IMG/VR virus record: IMGVR_UViG_3300034156_000107
Source of the DNA: a virus
Lineage: Duplodnaviria; Heunggongvirae; Uroviricota; Caudoviricetes
Direction: 5' to 3' (one strand)
DNA: 64,000 nucleotides
In this document: piece by piece, positions 16,703 to 60,863 of the stretch
Position numbering within the stretch: position 1 is the first letter of the stretch
How the letters are laid out: each line of letters starts with the position of its first letter
Position numbers and translations under genes: made by a program
Notes under the pieces: model-generated
Seen by the model: the letters and a program-made list of their open reading frames with translations, nothing else
Database searches by the model: none
What the model was told of the DNA's origin: nothing

Positions 16703-16927
16703 ATGTGCAGTAAAACAGATGCTGATGGTTTTCTGCCTTGCCCATTTTGTGGTGGCACTGAAATTCACATGGAAACATGGAGCCGTCAACGAGGTGAGTG
16801 GCTGGGTAAAGTCACCAATGAATGCTGTGGTTACACGTTTATTGTGTTGAACGTGGTCGGTTCCACCAAGAAAGAAATGATTGAATTTTACAAAAGACAG
16901 TGGAATAAAAGACCAGAAAAAGCTTGA
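16703..16927 (+). CDS. Lar-family-like restriction-alleviation zinc-finger protein (candidate)
   Basis: LPCPFCGG...CCGY zinc knuckle and a C-terminal ...EFYKRQWNKRP resembling the Lar consensus CPFCG...AIEAWNRR. Own promoter gatataat and RBS agagggt. Confidence 0.5.
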   Translation: MCSKTDADGFLPCPFCGGTEIHMETWSRQRGEWLGKVTNECCGYTFIVLNVVGSTKKEMIEFYKRQWNKRPEKA

Positions 16928-16952
16928 TTTGTTGAGATGGATTTGGTAGAAT
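16925..16952 (+). promoter_or_regulatory. promoter (TTGATT-N16-TGGTAGAAT) driving the ncRNA locus
   Basis: ttgatttgttgagatggatTTGGTAGAAT sits directly upstream of about 480 nt with no ORF. Confidence 0.45.
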
Positions 16953-17253
16953 AGCCACATTGAAACAGAGTAAAGAATTCGGAGCCTGCGTAAAAGTGGG
17001 TTGGGTGGCAGCGGTGTCGCGGGCAAGCCACTAACGAGACATGAGAGAAATCTCTGTCTCACGGTAGAGAGGGGAATTAAAGTGTGGTTTGCTTTGATTA
17101 AAACGGCTGGGTGAGTCGGCTCCTTTCTGCTAACCTGATTAAATGTTACACACTAGTAGAGTGAAGAATTATGGCCCAAGAGGTTATGATTAAAACAGAT
17201 GGGTGATCTGGCTTCCTTTGCTAAACCAAATTTAAAAGTTCATACAGTAGTAG

Positions 17254-17399
17254 CTCAATGGATGTTTAAAGTAGGCCGCGACTTGCAAGGAGATTCTAGA
17301 CTCTTTTCTTGACGGTTTGGCCGATGATAAACTAGCTTTTCGACAAGCAGAGCGTGCCCACAAGGCAAGGCGTTGGTTCGATTCCAGCCTATTGTACCA
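17254..17399 (+). ncRNA. tRNA-like element with encoded CCA and a large internal insertion/degenerate anticodon arm
   Basis: 5' ACAGTAG pairs with 3' CTATTGT (6 WC pairs + 1 GU). T-arm is GTTGG-TTCGATT-CCAGC. Discriminator A, then CCA at 17397-17399. The 5' side has the D-like motif TAGCTCAATGG. About 75 extra nt sit between the D and T regions. Confidence 0.4.
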
Positions 17400-17408
17400 A
17401 CAACCGAA

Positions 17409-17441
17409 AACAACTTGTTGAAAGACAGGTTGTTTTTTTTT
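17409..17441 (+). terminator. intrinsic terminator
   Basis: caacttgttg-aaaga-caggttg followed by TTTTTTTTT. Confidence 0.65.
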
Positions 17442-29179: not shown

Positions 29180-29220
29180 TTGATTGTATAATCATGGTTC
29201 AAATCAAAAGGATTACAGAA

Positions 29221-34034: not shown

Positions 34035-34622
34035 ATGACTATGACCGCTATTGAACTTCGCAAAGACCTCCTTATTTGGGTGGATCTTGAAACGACTGGC
34101 TTGGATATTGCTGACAAGTTGTCGGGTGCTCAGTGTCATAAAATCCTTGAAGTCGGTATTCATATTACCGATTCGAAATTCAATATCATTGATGAAGGCT
34201 TTGAAGTGGTTATTCATCATGACGTTGAAGAAGCCAAAGCACTGGCAAATGATTACGTTCGCAATATGCACATCACCAGTGGCTTGTGGGATCGTGTTGA
34301 CGCATCGCCTGTTTCGTTGGCCGAAGCAGAAAAAATGATTTTGGCTTATATCGCTCAATTCAACATCGCTCCGGGTTCCAGTCCAATTTGTGGTAACAGT
34401 GTTTCGCTGGATCGCAACTTTATCATGGCCCAAATGTCAACCTTTGCGAGCATCCTGCATTACCGCATCATTGACGTAAGCACTCTTAAAGAAATCGTGT
34501 GGCGTGTGAAACCAGAAGTGGGTATGATGGTTAAAAAGCAAGAAAAACATCGTGGACTTGAAGACATTAAAGAGTCCATTGCGGAATATAAAATTTATGA
34601 AGAGTTCTTTTTTGTAAAATAA
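34035..34622 (+). CDS. dexA: DEDDh 3'-5' exonuclease of the oligoribonuclease / T4 DexA family
   Basis: LIWVDLETTGLD...ILEVG...HITSGL...SPICGNSVSLDRNFI...HYRIIDVSTLKEIVWR...HRGLEDIKESIAEY aligns motif by motif with E. coli Orn (LIWIDLEMTGLD...SPICGNSIGQDRRFL...HYRYLDVSTLKELARR...HQAMDDIRESVAEL). RBS aggagt. Confidence 0.85.
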   Translation: MTMTAIELRKDLLIWVDLETTGLDIADKLSGAQCHKILEVGIHITDSKFNIIDEGFEVVIHHDVEEAKALANDYVRNMHITSGLWDRVDASPVSLAEAEKMILAYIAQFNIAPGSSPICGNSVSLDRNFIMAQMSTFASILHYRIIDVSTLKEIVWRVKPEVGMMVKKQEKHRGLEDIKESIAEYKIYEEFFFVK

Positions 34623-35609: not shown

Positions 35610-35718
35610 TGGAATATTTTTCACTTTTAAAAAGTTTTTAAAAAATATCATTTTTGCTATTTACTTAATGTGTTTTTTGTTGTATAATAAAAGTCTAATA
35701 AACAAAGGTATTTATATT

Positions 35719-35850
35719 ATGCAAGGTTCATTTGGTGACGCAACAGAACGTTTCCGTGGTGGCAAAAAACGTGACACAGAAAAAGCAAAAACTCATGAGC
35801 AAGACAAAAACTGGCGAAAGAAGCGTCGTGATCGTCACGTTAACGAATAA
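35719..35850 (+). CDS. small basic protein (43 aa)
   Basis: Promoter ttgttgtataat overlaps the track start, so the start was moved to ATG 35719 (MQGSFGDATERFRGGKKRD...). Confidence 0.45.
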   Translation: MQGSFGDATERFRGGKKRDTEKAKTHEQDKNWRKKRRDRHVNE

Positions 35851-35868
35851 CGAATTTTACAATTTTGG

Positions 35869-35938
35869 CTGTTTGTAGTTCAGTTGGCAGAACTCCGTCG
35901 AAAAACGGTAGTCGTGGGTTCGAATCCCATCATACAGC
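35869..35938 (+). tRNA. tRNA-like element (canonical acceptor, D and T arms; truncated non-canonical anticodon arm)
   Basis: Acceptor CTGTTTG/CATACAG (6 bp + T.T). D-arm GTTC-AGTTGGCA-GAAC. T-arm GTGGG-TTCGAAT-CCCAT. Discriminator C. Only 20 nt sit between the D and T arms (4-bp stem CCGT/ACGG, 6-nt loop). No encoded CCA. Terminator at 35950. Confidence 0.5.
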
Positions 35939-35949
35939 CTTTATACACT

Positions 35950-35975
35950 AAGACCACTTTCGAGTGGTTTTTTTA
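35950..35975 (+). terminator. intrinsic terminator
   Basis: agaccactttcgagtggt followed by TTTTTTT. Confidence 0.7.
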
Positions 35976-36134
35976 TTGATTTTTTATATTATGTAATGAT
36001 AATCATTCTCATTTTTTTATTGACTTGACTTATTGCTGTGTTACACTATTGAATACTTTTCTATCATTATGATAAAGAATACTAAACGAATATAGATTGC
36101 GTTTTTTGCATCTAGCTATTAGGAGAATTAAATA

Positions 36135-57653: not shown

Positions 57654-58775
57654 ATGTCCAGCATCTTCCCGCGTATTGAAACCCTTGATGATATGCTTCC
57701 TCACATCAAAGACCGTGCCTATATTTCTGTTAATAAACAGGATAACGGTGCCAACATCGTTTGCTATAACATCAGCAACGGCGACTCTTTCAACACTCCG
57801 GTTGAAAAGGAAGCTCGCGGTATTACCTTTGACGACAACGGTAAAATCCTGTCGCGTCCATTGCACAAATTCTTCAACTTGGCAGAGCGTGCAGAAGTCC
57901 AACCAGCCGTTTTGGATTGGAACACGATGGTCGCCGGGTTTGATAAAATGGATGGCTCCATGATTACCACAGGGCTGTTCAACGGCGAATTTTTTGCTAA
58001 GTCCAAGAAGTCTTTCAAATCGGATGTGGCTGTTTCTGCAGAAAGTTTTGTGTCTCGTAACCAGAAATACTACGAGTTCACCAAATATTGCTCTCAGGCC
58101 CAACTGACCCCTATTTTTGAATTCACTTCGCCAAAACATCGTATCGTTTTGCGTTATGACGAAGACAACATGACACTTCTTCATGTTCGTCACAACATCA
58201 CAGGCGATTACTTAATGCCTGCTGACAAAGACCAACTGGCGTTGTTGTTTGATATTCCTGTTAACAAGCCACTGTTTGGTGAAGAATTTGATTTGGCTGC
58301 TTTATTGAAGTCGCTGAACACTGTTGAAGGGATTGAAGGCTACGTTATTCAGTTCGTTAACGGTAACATGATCAAAATCAAAACCAAATGGTATATGAAC
58401 CTCCATCATGCGGTTAGCTTTGTTCGTGAACGTGATATTGCTCGGTTGGTGGTTGAAGAAAAACTTGATGATTATATCGCTTATTTGTCGCTGAACTCGC
58501 CAACGGCTGATTTGAGTGAGATTTATCGAATCAATGACGCTATCAAAGCTTCGATTGAAGCGTTGTCGAAAGAAGTTGATGATATTGCTGCTGAATTCCA
58601 AGGTGTTGATGTGAAAACTGCAGCAATTCAGCTTAAAGGCCATAAACACTTTGGTTTTGTTATGGGTGCAATTCGTGGTCACAAAAACGACTACCTGTAT
58701 CACTACTCTAAAAACCATCTGGTGGATTGGTCGTTGGAACAAATTGAGCTTGGCGACTTGTCAGCTCCGGTTTAA
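57654..58775 (+). CDS. RNA ligase, T4 Rnl1 family (paralogue A)
   Basis: Nucleotidyltransferase motif I FDKMDGSM (KxDG), motif IV EGIEGYVIQF and motif V MIKIKTKWY. N-terminus YNISNG...ARGITF...PLHKFFNL parallels T4 Rnl1 YRIFSYNY...CRGIMF...PMEKFFNL. Promoter atttcgatataat. Confidence 0.8.
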   Translation: MSSIFPRIETLDDMLPHIKDRAYISVNKQDNGANIVCYNISNGDSFNTPVEKEARGITFDDNGKILSRPLHKFFNLAERAEVQPAVLDWNTMVAGFDKMDGSMITTGLFNGEFFAKSKKSFKSDVAVSAESFVSRNQKYYEFTKYCSQAQLTPIFEFTSPKHRIVLRYDEDNMTLLHVRHNITGDYLMPADKDQLALLFDIPVNKPLFGEEFDLAALLKSLNTVEGIEGYVIQFVNGNMIKIKTKWYMNLHHAVSFVRERDIARLVVEEKLDDYIAYLSLNSPTADLSEIYRINDAIKASIEALSKEVDDIAAEFQGVDVKTAAIQLKGHKHFGFVMGAIRGHKNDYLYHYSKNHLVDWSLEQIELGDLSAPV

Positions 58776-59685: not shown

Positions 59686-59741
59686 ATTAAAAATCAGTTT
59701 TTGATATAATCAATTCAGACAATTTAATCGTGGAGATTCAC

Positions 59742-60863
59742 ATGACTTATCAACAAGAACTGTATGCCCAACTGATGAACCTGTTGGTGACGAATCCGGG
59801 GTCGTTCAAATACCGTGATGAAACCTCGGCAGTAGACGGCGGGACTTACCGTGTCTTCAACTATGACATTCCAAAGCACTCCGAATTCAAACTTCCGGGT
59901 GCTAAGGATTGCCGTGGGGTCATGTTCTACATGGGCGGTGATGATCCAGTGCTGGTTGCATTGCCTATGCAGAAATTTTTCTCGCTCGGTGAAACCCCAG
60001 AGACTCAAAAGATCAAGCCAGAAGAAGCGGATCATGCTTACTTGAAGCCGGACGGTTCCTTGCTGACCAGCTATATCTCGCCGGTTAACAATACGCTTTA
60101 CTACAAGAGCAAAAAGAAGCCAACTTTTGCCGATTATGACCTTGTTGAGAAGTCTATCAGCCCTGAGTTGCACGCTGACATTGAGCGTCTGACCCGCACA
60201 GGTATTTCTGTTGACTTGGAATTGACCACGCCCAAAAACCGCGTGTTCATTGAATACACTGATTACGCTGTTCATATCCTAAAAGCCCGTGATATGAGCA
60301 CTGGTGCTTATGTTGATATTCGTTCGGCTGAATTCGCTGCCAAATACCCGGTTATTGCGGCCCATTTGGTGAAACGTATCCCTATCAATGAACTCAACGT
60401 CAATGACCCTGAGATTGAGGGTTATGTGGTTGAATTTGGCACTGACATGTATAAGGTGAAGACAATTCCTTACCTGAAAATGTCGGCAGTTGTCAACATT
60501 CAGGATCGGTCGAAGGAACGTCAGGTTATTTATGAAGCAACCCTTCACGAAATTCTGGATGAAATCCGTTCGTTGTATCACTACCGGACGCACAGCGACA
60601 ACTTCCCACTGGCTGAAATTCTGGCTCGCTTGGATGAAGTAGAAGACTATGCACGTAAAAGCTACCATTACCTTGTTCGCACGGTCGATAGCTTCCACAA
60701 TGAGCATAAAGGTCTGGAACGTGGCGATTACGCTCGTAAAGCCAAAGAAGTGGCTCCATTGCTTCTGTCGGTGTTGATGAGCAAGTTTTCGGGTGATGAG
60801 ATTGATTACAAACAAGCTGCTATCATGGTATTTGCTCGTAAACAAGTGCCTATTCCCGAGTAA
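59742..60863 (+). CDS. rnlA: RNA ligase, T4 Rnl1 family (paralogue B, closer to T4 Rnl1)
   Basis: TYRVFNYDIP...CRGVMFYMGGD...PMQKFFSLGE...YLKPDGSLLTSY...EGYVVEFGTDMYKVKT mirrors T4 Rnl1 TYRIFSYNYA...CRGIMFEMDGE...PMEKFFNLNE...LTKEDGSLVSTY...EGYVAVMKDGSHFKIKS. Promoter gatataat and RBS tggag. Confidence 0.9.
   Translation: MTYQQELYAQLMNLLVTNPGSFKYRDETSAVDGGTYRVFNYDIPKHSEFKLPGAKDCRGVMFYMGGDDPVLVALPMQKFFSLGETPETQKIKPEEADHAYLKPDGSLLTSYISPVNNTLYYKSKKKPTFADYDLVEKSISPELHADIERLTRTGISVDLELTTPKNRVFIEYTDYAVHILKARDMSTGAYVDIRSAEFAAKYPVIAAHLVKRIPINELNVNDPEIEGYVVEFGTDMYKVKTIPYLKMSAVVNIQDRSKERQVIYEATLHEILDEIRSLYHYRTHSDNFPLAEILARLDEVEDYARKSYHYLVRTVDSFHNEHKGLERGDYARKAKEVAPLLLSVLMSKFSGDEIDYKQAAIMVFARKQVPIPE

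Follow-up and report, generated by a model that had tools for sequence, protein, structure and literature searches.

Two non-decoding tRNA derivatives in viral DNA of the Caudoviricetes: a probable tRNA-His relic and the 3' domain of a two-domain RNA gene

The stretch of DNA analysed here, 64,000 nucleotides (nt) of the Caudoviricetes record IMGVR_UViG_3300034156_000107 of IMG/VR and hereafter called the window, carries two elements that resemble transfer RNA (tRNA), at 35868-35938 (element 1) and at 17244-17399 (element 2). The explanation that accounts best for the observations, and which is considered reasonably probable, is that neither of these tRNA derivatives decodes and that they are unrelated to each other, element 1 being a dispensable tRNA-His relic and element 2 the 3' domain of a two-domain RNA gene, probably processed from its transcript and endowed with a function of its own. 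The original prediction, made from the sequence alone, had proposed two tRNA-like elements and treated them as a single class. Both are real, but they do not belong together, since element 1 derives from a tRNA-His and element 2 is a domain of a conserved RNA gene. Exact matches to the T-loop consensus GGTTCRANTCC number two in the window, where 0.2 would be expected, and each element contains one of them; none of 100 shuffles reached two, and the elements are therefore more than chance resemblances. Both keep the acceptor, T-arm and elbow features that are recognised by RNase P and by enzymes acting on the CCA end. A third T-loop-like site, at 29196, is merely promoter or 5' untranslated region (UTR) sequence.

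Element 2 does not stand alone but is the 3' domain of a conserved RNA gene of about 400-500 nt with two domains and with its own promoter and terminator. The gene occupies a 600-nt gap between the genes for a Lar-like protein and for a protein of 65 amino acids (aa), a region with a folding z score of -4.3 (none of 100 shuffles was equally stable). Relatives were obtained as contigs carrying homologues of the 65-aa protein; all of them retain a gap of 450-530 nt, and eight distinct variants of element 2, each of 155-157 nt, were distinguished. The parts of the gene in the window are, with stem lengths in base pairs (bp):

16924-16952, + strand: promoter-like site TTGATT-17-TAGAAT, with TG; kept in all variants
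16975-17233, + strand: 5' structured domain, closing stem GAATT.GG / CC.AATTT
17234-17243, + strand: linker ending in A(-2)U(-1), an AU invariant in all variants and directly ahead of the predicted RNase P site
17244-17399, + strand: element 2, the tRNA-like domain of 156 nt
17244-17250 and 17389-17395, + strand: acceptor stem of element 2, ACAGTAG / CTATTGT, 7 bp
17253-17256 and 17350-17353, + strand: D-stem GCTC / GAGC, 4 bp, enclosing a 93-nt insertion (long and small hairpin)
17264-17332, + strand: long hairpin, with the invariant loop UUCUAGAC at 17294-17301
17335-17348, + strand: small hairpin, with the loop UUCGAC at 17339-17344
17355-17367, + strand: stub hairpin TGCC-CACAA-GGCA in place of the anticodon arm
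17372-17388, + strand: T-arm GTTGG-TTCGATT-CCAGC
17396-17399, + strand: A73 and encoded CCA
17406-17441, + strand: intrinsic terminator, 7 nt past the CCA; 93-100% conserved across variants

Promoter, 5' domain, linker, element 2 and terminator follow one another in the same order in all variants, the promoter-like site reading TTGATT/TTGCTA-17-TAGAAT/TACAAT. Within the 5' domain a block of 29 nt (16996-17024) is invariant, and the consensus fold contains 49 predicted pairs, five of which show compensatory changes. One of its hairpins exists in two allelic forms, AAAGUG-UGGUU-UGCUUU and AUGGCC-CAAGA-GGCUAU, with the same pairing and little common sequence; another changes from CGGCU-GGGUG-AGUCG to CGCUU-GGGUG-AAGCG. 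A coding function of the gap is excluded by indels that are not multiples of three, by the compensatory stems and by the presence of open reading frames (ORFs) of only 34-37 aa. Permissive Rfam scans (E = 10) of the gap and of the whole window returned terminator-like noise only, and neither domain has a family; known riboswitches, ribozymes, RNase P RNA, transfer-messenger RNA (tmRNA), GOLLD/ROOL-type RNAs and group I/II introns are excluded by these scans.

The length of the 5' domain is ~165 nt in every variant but that of the window. A module of ~93 nt (about 17137-17229) is tandemly duplicated in the window lineage only (the window and L003-L005) and is present elsewhere in one copy. Copy 1 matches the allele of L006/L034 and copy 2 that of L025/L033, and the two copies correspond to both allelic forms of the hairpin, as though recombination had linked one allele to the other.

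The unconstrained minimum free energy (MFE) structure of 17244-17399 is the cloverleaf of element 2, whose D-loop contains a G18G19-type motif. The acceptor pairing, T-arm, discriminator A and encoded CCA that had been described for it are all present. Its start, previously placed at 17254, lies at 17244, as given by the acceptor pairing ACAGTAG/CTATTGT. The extra sequence that had been noticed also exists, although it does not amount to a simple addition of about 75 nt but to the 93-nt insertion inside the 4-bp D-stem, followed by the stub hairpin. Measured against the features of a decoding tRNA (a 5-bp anticodon stem, a 7-nt loop with U33 and an assignable anticodon), element 2 falls short: the stub has a stem of 3-4 bp and a loop of 5-7 nt, which reads CACAA, CUAAUAA, UGAUAA or UCACAAG depending on the variant. 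Since no anticodon is conserved in this loop, element 2 does not decode. No Rfam tRNA match to 17244-17399 was obtained even at E <= 10 with permissive filters, and ARAGORN reported nothing. The ancestry of the tRNA module proved untraceable, blastn with the insertion removed returning generic D-arm matches only. The apical loop UUCUAGAC contains a 6-nt palindrome, UCUAGA, which is a candidate site for kissing-loop dimerisation.

Comparison of the variants lends support to this structure. A covariance model was built from the four variants that could be aligned cleanly, and all eight were then realigned to it, because the MAFFT alignment of element 2 was unreliable around indels. In the model-guided alignment, 97.3% of the cells are standard pairs, as opposed to 30-50% when the partners are slid. 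Both sides of a pair have changed in the acceptor (6:67, A-U to G-C) and in the T-stem (51:63, U-A to C-G), G.U alternates with G-C or A-U at 1:72 and 4:69, and one base of the small hairpin has been dropped from both strands together. RNAalifold returned the same cloverleaf from the eight variants. The T-loop UUCRAKU, the GG of the D-loop, the loop UUCUAGAC and the small-hairpin loop UUCGAC are invariant or nearly so. Moreover, both RNA domains are 81-97% identical between variants, compared with 71-84% at the DNA level for the adjacent protein gene; this excess of about 10 points indicates purifying selection on the RNA. The gene is also a mosaic. Between the window and L006 (2639-2794), the downstream gene is 99.5% identical and element 2 only 90%, while between the window and L044 element 2 is 98% identical and the neighbouring gene 79%. 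Two cassettes of the 3' half therefore appear to recombine independently of their flanks.

Element 1 has a different setting and a different history. It belongs to a transcription unit with the gene for a basic protein of 43 aa:

35660-35688, + strand: promoter-like site TTTACT-17-TATAAT of the unit
35719-35850, + strand: gene for the 43-aa basic protein (MQGSFGDATERFRGGKK...RKKRRDRH), kept in relatives with or without element 1
35868-35938, + strand: element 1, an anticodon-less tRNA-His derivative, with G(-1) at 35868, the cloverleaf at 35869-35937 and C73 at 35938
35895-35908, + strand: anticodon arm of element 1, 14 nt instead of the usual 17
35950-35971 (35950-35978 with wider limits), + strand: intrinsic terminator of the unit, 90% conserved even with respect to L014

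Its layout is G(-1) / CTGTTTG / TA / GTTC-AGTTGGCA-GAAC / T / CCGTCGAAAAACGG / TAGTC / GTGGG-TTCGAAT-CCCAT / CATACAG / C. The drawing of element 1 in the original prediction, with its D-arm, T-arm, 7-bp acceptor including one T.T and 20-nt interval between D and T arms, agrees with the sequence, with the Rfam match and with the MFE fold, which is a cloverleaf. The mismatch (U.U in the RNA) is at 5:68, and the interval is normally 23 nt. The position of the element at the 3' end of the 43-aa gene unit, just before a terminator, is equally borne out, since it lies 18 nt past the stop codon of the ORF and 11 nt ahead of the terminator. The Rfam tRNA model (RF00005) gives 44.2 bits (gathering score 29, E = 3.9e-6); its alignment to element 1 has a gap of 3 nt within the anticodon stem. 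The anticodon arm can be drawn with a 4-bp stem and a 6-nt loop or with a 3-bp stem and an 8-nt loop, the loop reading CGAAAA or UCGAAAAA; there is no GUG anticodon and no U33 in register, and the CCA is not encoded. Element 1 thus lacks the features of a decoding tRNA listed above. In accordance with the claim that it cannot present a normal anticodon, ARAGORN assigns none and reports a 'tRNA-???' with a 2-base anticodon. The possibility that realignment would turn either element into a canonical tRNA was examined with ARAGORN and Rfam, and no canonical call was obtained for either. An assembly artefact was also excluded as the origin of the short arm: identical copies of element 1 occur in independent contigs from other samples, which therefore speaks against an assembly error, and the diverged copy in L014 is equally long.

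Permissive blastn searches with element 1 against phages gave mainly tRNA-His genes as the best annotated matches (Aeromonas phage Ah1, T4-like coliphages, a T5-like phage and Erwinia phage IT22). In alignment A13, element 1 agrees with phage tRNA-His over the D arm, position 26 and the first two bases of the anticodon stem (CC), and again from the last two stem bases (GG) through the TAGTC variable loop and the T arm. The sole region of difference is the interior of the anticodon arm, CCG-TCGAAAAA-CGG (14 nt) in element 1 and of the type CCAGG-TTGTGAT-CCTGG (17 nt) in tRNA-His. Element 1 also carries an encoded G(-1) opposite C73 (35868 / 35938), as do the copies in L011/L043, and G(-1):C73 is the bacterial histidine identity pair (PMC9976931). 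Because it combines a tRNA-His body with this pair, element 1 is regarded as a histidine tRNA without an anticodon. The tRNA-His of Aeromonas phage Ah1 and Escherichia phage AR1 share with it the D arm, position 26, the ends of the anticodon stem, TAGTC, the T arm and G(-1)/C73. They have a 17-nt anticodon arm with GUG, whereas element 1 has an arm of 14 nt and an A/U-rich acceptor with a U.U mismatch and cannot be typed by ARAGORN. Judging from these alignments, element 1 is a former phage tRNA-His gene in which the interior of the anticodon arm has been remodelled and shortened, leaving no usable anticodon.

The fate of element 1 was followed in contigs fetched through homologues of the flanking 96-aa protein (65-91% identity). 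Where this neighbour is 91% identical (L011, L012 and L043), element 1 is present with one change in the D-loop. In L014 (neighbour 77% identical), the copy has 12 substitutions in 70 nt. Covariation in homologous phages had been suggested as a check; compensatory changes, if shallow ones, were found in element 2, but the substitutions in the acceptor, D and T stems of element 1 in L014 are all disruptive (10:25 G-C to U.U, 49:65 G.U to U.U and 2:71 U-A to U.U). G(-1) and C73 are gone in this copy (C-1, U73), the cloverleaf fold is lost, and neither ARAGORN nor Rfam calls it. In L015 and L016 (neighbour 74% identical), the 43-aa gene leads directly into the terminator and element 1 is absent. 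It is also absent from L047-49 of IMG/VR, in which the small gene is kept with another gene directly after it and a genuine tRNA-Leu lies ~1 kb downstream. Ordinary tRNAs (Arg, Leu) are dispersed over the related accessory regions, and tRNA genes are therefore gained and lost there. Relatives differ in whether they have element 1 intact, in decay or not at all, and so the 3' UTR of the 43-aa gene most probably holds a dispensable relic and not a required element; for the same reason, a role as a required mRNA stabiliser or processing signal for this gene seems unlikely.

The 43-aa protein itself is 67-74% identical across divergent relatives and is present in IMG/VR contigs too; the Pfam scan assigned it to no family. 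It is highly basic, its gene has a promoter of its own, and it may act as a peptide that binds RNA or ribosomes.

A favourable substrate of bacterial RNase P has a 7-bp acceptor stacked on a T arm, an elbow made of T-loop and D-loop, U(-1) and an RCCA 3' end. Most likely, the tRNA-shaped module of element 2 would direct cleavage by RNase P at 17243/17244. Together with 3' trimming of the transcript to the CCA, such cleavage would give a stable tRNA-like RNA of 156 nt and would free a 5' domain of ~190-280 nt. The invariance of the extra hairpins indicates that this tRNA-like RNA would have a function of its own, beyond that of punctuation or of a processing handle. Element 1, from the positions of promoter and terminator, would be co-transcribed behind the 43-aa gene. 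Its intact acceptor, D arm, T arm and G(-1):C73 suggest that host RNase P, and possibly histidyl-tRNA synthetase (HisRS), could still act on it; in the window lineage it is conceivably charged by HisRS, a minority reading. For an RNA with A73, such as element 2, LeuRS would be the one synthetase that could plausibly act independently of an anticodon.

The window corresponds to about 1.351-1.415 Mb of the JGI contig Ga0370506_000001 (1,917,244 bp), and exact or near-exact homologues of its proteins are also found on contigs of 1.84-1.86 Mb, 835 kb, 678 kb and 208 kb. Contigs with relatives range from 1 kb to 1.86 Mb, and IMG/VR viral contigs with relatives from 64 to 193 kb. The window, whose gene content is phage-like, is treated here as an accessory region within a large, uncultured phage or phage-derived element, which may be a prophage, a chimera or a very large element. 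Among GTDB species-representative genomes, none carries a match to the RNA probe or a member of the neighbouring 65-aa protein family, and comparison of the window DNA with GenBank phages gave neither a close nor a distant relative for either locus. DNA pattern scans yielded only the L031 contig in JGI metagenomes, unrelated normal tRNAs or nothing in IMG/VR, and nothing in GTDB genomes; a protein-guided scan of IMG/VR with the Orn-like protein of the window gave nothing.

ORFans encoded on a single strand make up nearly the whole window, and every one has a promoter and a terminator to itself. The genes that could be recognised, in a Pfam scan of 84 ORFs, are of accessory or counter-defence type and include two ligase genes:

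57654-58775: Rnl1 ligase gene 1
59730-60863: Rnl1 ligase gene 2

The best match of the window Rnl1 comes from a Ralstonia jumbo phage (42% identity). The other recognised products are an RNase T/Orn-like exonuclease, Lar-like, DUF6900, pentapeptide-repeat and CinA proteins and an AAA_33 kinase; Acb1 is represented by a weak match only. The Orn-like exonuclease gene (34035-34622) is unbroken in the window, L012 and L013. In L011 (1225-1812) it is split into ORFs of 98 and 95 aa, which looks like lineage-specific pseudogenisation of an accessory gene.

Several observations weigh against the explanation preferred here. The covariation in element 2 is shallow, with double changes in two pairs and a score that 14 of 500 shuffles reach, and the alignment was fitted by a model built from the proposed structure itself. 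The D-stem GCTC/GAGC shows no variation at all, and hence no covariation support, and the T-stem needs a bulge or mismatch in half of the variants. The comparative support for the cloverleaf is thus real but shallow. As to element 1, its identity between the window and L014 is 83%, higher than that of the flanking gene (74%), the intergenic DNA (73%) and the short spacers (44-46%). The 20-nt spacing between D and T arms is the same in both lineages and predates their split, and in the L014 copy a 4-bp hairpin forms anew with its register shifted. Element 1 may accordingly be under some constraint.

Other readings of element 2 start from the same features. It could be a mere handle for processing or stability, comparable to mascRNA on MALAT1 or to a tRNA scaffold; the functional RNA would then be the 5' domain, and the tRNA-like part would set its 3' end or shield it from exonucleases. 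The succession of 5' domain, linker with invariant AU, tRNA-like domain with ACCA and terminator would suit this role, as would the stronger covariation and the 29-nt invariant block of the 5' domain. It is nevertheless unlikely, because a handle would have no need of a long hairpin with the loop UUCUAGAC and a small hairpin with UUCGAC that are invariant or nearly so, and because element 2 is conserved as much as the 5' domain. Readings of element 2 as tmRNA, as intron-containing tRNA or as a Y-RNA-like RNA that partners Ro are scarcely credible. The tRNA-like acceptor, the T arm, the ACCA, the extra structure and an RNA length of about 350-440 nt do recall a tmRNA, but all three readings fail their defining tests. 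ARAGORN finds no tmRNA, and with Rfam neither tmRNA nor introns nor Y RNA were matched, even at E = 10. Position 3:70 is A-U and not G-U in 8/8 variants, and there is no conserved tag ORF, the AUG in GAUGAUAAAC being missing from L025/L031. The acceptor pairing is local (it spans 150 nt) and covaries; it does not join the transcript ends. If the insertion is conceptually removed, as from an intron-bearing tRNA, the anticodon arm is still a stub. As for Y RNA, neither a TROVE/Ro protein nor a reverse transcriptase was found in the Pfam scan of the 84 window ORFs, and the topology is the reverse of that of Y RNA or YrlA, in that the termini of element 2 form the acceptor and not a Ro-binding stem with a distal tRNA-like module.

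The remaining readings assign an active role to one or both elements. They might serve as decoys or sponges for host defences that target tRNA (anticodon nucleases, or toxins acting on the acceptor or CCA end), offering a tRNA body whose anticodon loop is harmless or absent. The setting resembles one of counter-defence (two Rnl1 genes, Acb1-like, CinA, Lar-like and AAA_33 kinase genes), the acceptor, elbow and CCA of element 2 are strictly kept while the stub loop is the part most variable in length and sequence, and the allelic 3' cassettes recombine apart from their flanks, as arms-race loci would. A decoy is quite unlikely, however: no stub loop resembles the target loop of a known nuclease, bait for an anticodon nuclease would be expected to retain a canonical 7-nt loop, and the idea rests wholly on context. 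Nor was anything found that ties either element to the two Rnl1 ligases, as had been suggested; their genes lie 22-40 kb away and are not syntenic with the elements in the recovered loci. Element 1 alone could be a functional non-decoding mimic that accepts histidine: RNase P processing would retain G(-1), and once the CCA had been added, HisRS would charge the RNA via G(-1):C73 with no need of an anticodon, so that it would titrate or signal to a host or phage factor and not enter the ribosome. HisRS does charge mini- and microhelices with G-1:C73 efficiently (PMC9976931), and element 1 offers this pair together with an intact acceptor, D arm and T arm on a tRNA-His body; its higher identity to the L014 copy (83%, against 73-74% for the flanks) and the retained 20-nt spacing would also fit. 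Such a mimic is very unlikely, given that L014 has lost G(-1), C73 and four stem pairs, that element 1 is absent from L015/L016 and L047-49, that it has a U.U mismatch at 5:68 and no encoded CCA, and that no partner protein is evident in the Pfam scan of the window ORFs. A bolder proposal, itself a long shot about on a par with the decoy, is that the phage non-coding RNA from the gene at 16960-17440 represents a class that is new. The tRNA mimic within it, which lacks an anticodon and has the invariant self-complementary UCUAGA loop and an encoded CCA, would be an active effector, serving as sponge, competitor or regulator of those host factors by which the acceptor or elbow is read (defence toxins acting on tRNA 3' ends, RNase P, the CCA-adding enzyme), perhaps oligomerising by kissing loops, and element 1 would be a second, His-chargeable mimic following the same strategy. 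If this were true, the fast-changing stub loop and the recombining 3' cassettes would be signatures of an arms race. On balance, the pairing of a tRNA-His relic with a probably processed two-domain RNA is preferred.

Parts of this picture are found in several known systems. In the account of MALAT1-mascRNA and MEN-beta drawn on here, RNase P cleavage separates a longer non-coding RNA from a tRNA-like 3' module (PMC11693755). A tRNA-like cloverleaf with a truncated anticodon arm, placed 3' of a structured non-coding RNA in one unit, is common to this system and element 2, a likeness of design only. The mascRNA system is eukaryotic and nuclear; mascRNA has about 58-61 nt and no large insertion and receives its CCA post-transcriptionally, and cleavage of element 2 is a prediction. 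The tRNA-like domain of tmRNA likewise has an acceptor stem, a T arm, an ACCA, a D-loop analogue and a non-tRNA helix in place of the normal arms. Unlike tmRNA, element 2 has no G3:U70 and no tag frame, its acceptor is local, and it is not detected by ARAGORN or Rfam. Element 1 finds a parallel in the histidine-accepting tRNA-like structures of plant viruses and in microhelices, which do not decode and are charged by HisRS via N-1:N73 (PMC9976931), a configuration present in element 1 as G(-1):C73. The viral structures are 3' ends of RNA genomes with pseudoknotted acceptors and a role in replication, unlike element 1, whose charging is putative. By itself element 1 is of modest interest: it illustrates the decay of phage tRNA genes, and degenerate phage tRNAs are of a kind already known. 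It would be a cheap test case for the charging in vivo of an anticodon-less RNA with G(-1):C73.

Stable tRNA-like RNAs of large phages, such as RNA C and RNA D of T4, have been known since the 1970s. According to the T4 annotation and to reviews, RNA C is a small stable RNA derived from the precursor transcript of the tRNA cluster. This RNA (species 1 RNA, rnaC) has 139 nt and its role is unknown (PMC3014915); transcription of the cluster terminates after the species I RNA gene (PMC2330249). Folding of T4 rnaC gave a canonical T-arm (CCGGG-UUCGAAU-CCCGG), paired 5' and 3' ends and long extra hairpins that replace the D and anticodon arms. It appears to be the closest analogue of element 2: both are phage-encoded and non-decoding, with a T arm, paired termini and extra hairpins, and both come last before a terminator. 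The likeness is architectural only, since a search of the T4 region with the element 2 model R1 gave 10.8 bits and E = 0.043 over part of rnaC only, that is, no detectable homology. RNA C is a member of a tRNA cluster. Element 2, by contrast, is joined to the 3' side of a structured 5' domain of ~165-260 nt with its own promoter, and it has an encoded ACCA, a D-stem and a stub hairpin, unlike the T4 RNA. The two-domain architecture of element 2 is novel. T4 rnaC and rnaD (L046:1409-1672) match no Rfam family at E <= 0.01.

A further RNA of this sort was noticed on an unrelated jumbo-phage contig of 398 kb (IMGVR_UViG_3300017991_000048), where normal tRNAs flank a 140-nt tRNA-like RNA (L001:522-661). 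Its acceptor has 7 bp and its D arm is normal; about 70 extra nt stand where the anticodon and variable regions would be, and a T arm and ACCA follow. Both ARAGORN and Rfam missed this RNA, which may be a further member of the informal class formed by T4 RNA C and element 2. In the same tRNA array, L001:263-339 is called by ARAGORN as a tRNA with a 4-base anticodon (tccg) and scores 51.7 bits with the Rfam tRNA model, possibly a tRNA with an 8-nt loop. Stable phage tRNA-like RNAs have no entry in Rfam and escape tRNA finders. Element 2 adds to the T4 RNAs a second, unrelated example with conserved structure, signs of purifying selection and a variable stub loop, and it offers a tractable case for asking what such RNAs do. 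Taken together, the T4 RNAs, element 2 and the L001 RNA suggest that non-decoding tRNA mimics recur in large phages as a class not yet catalogued.

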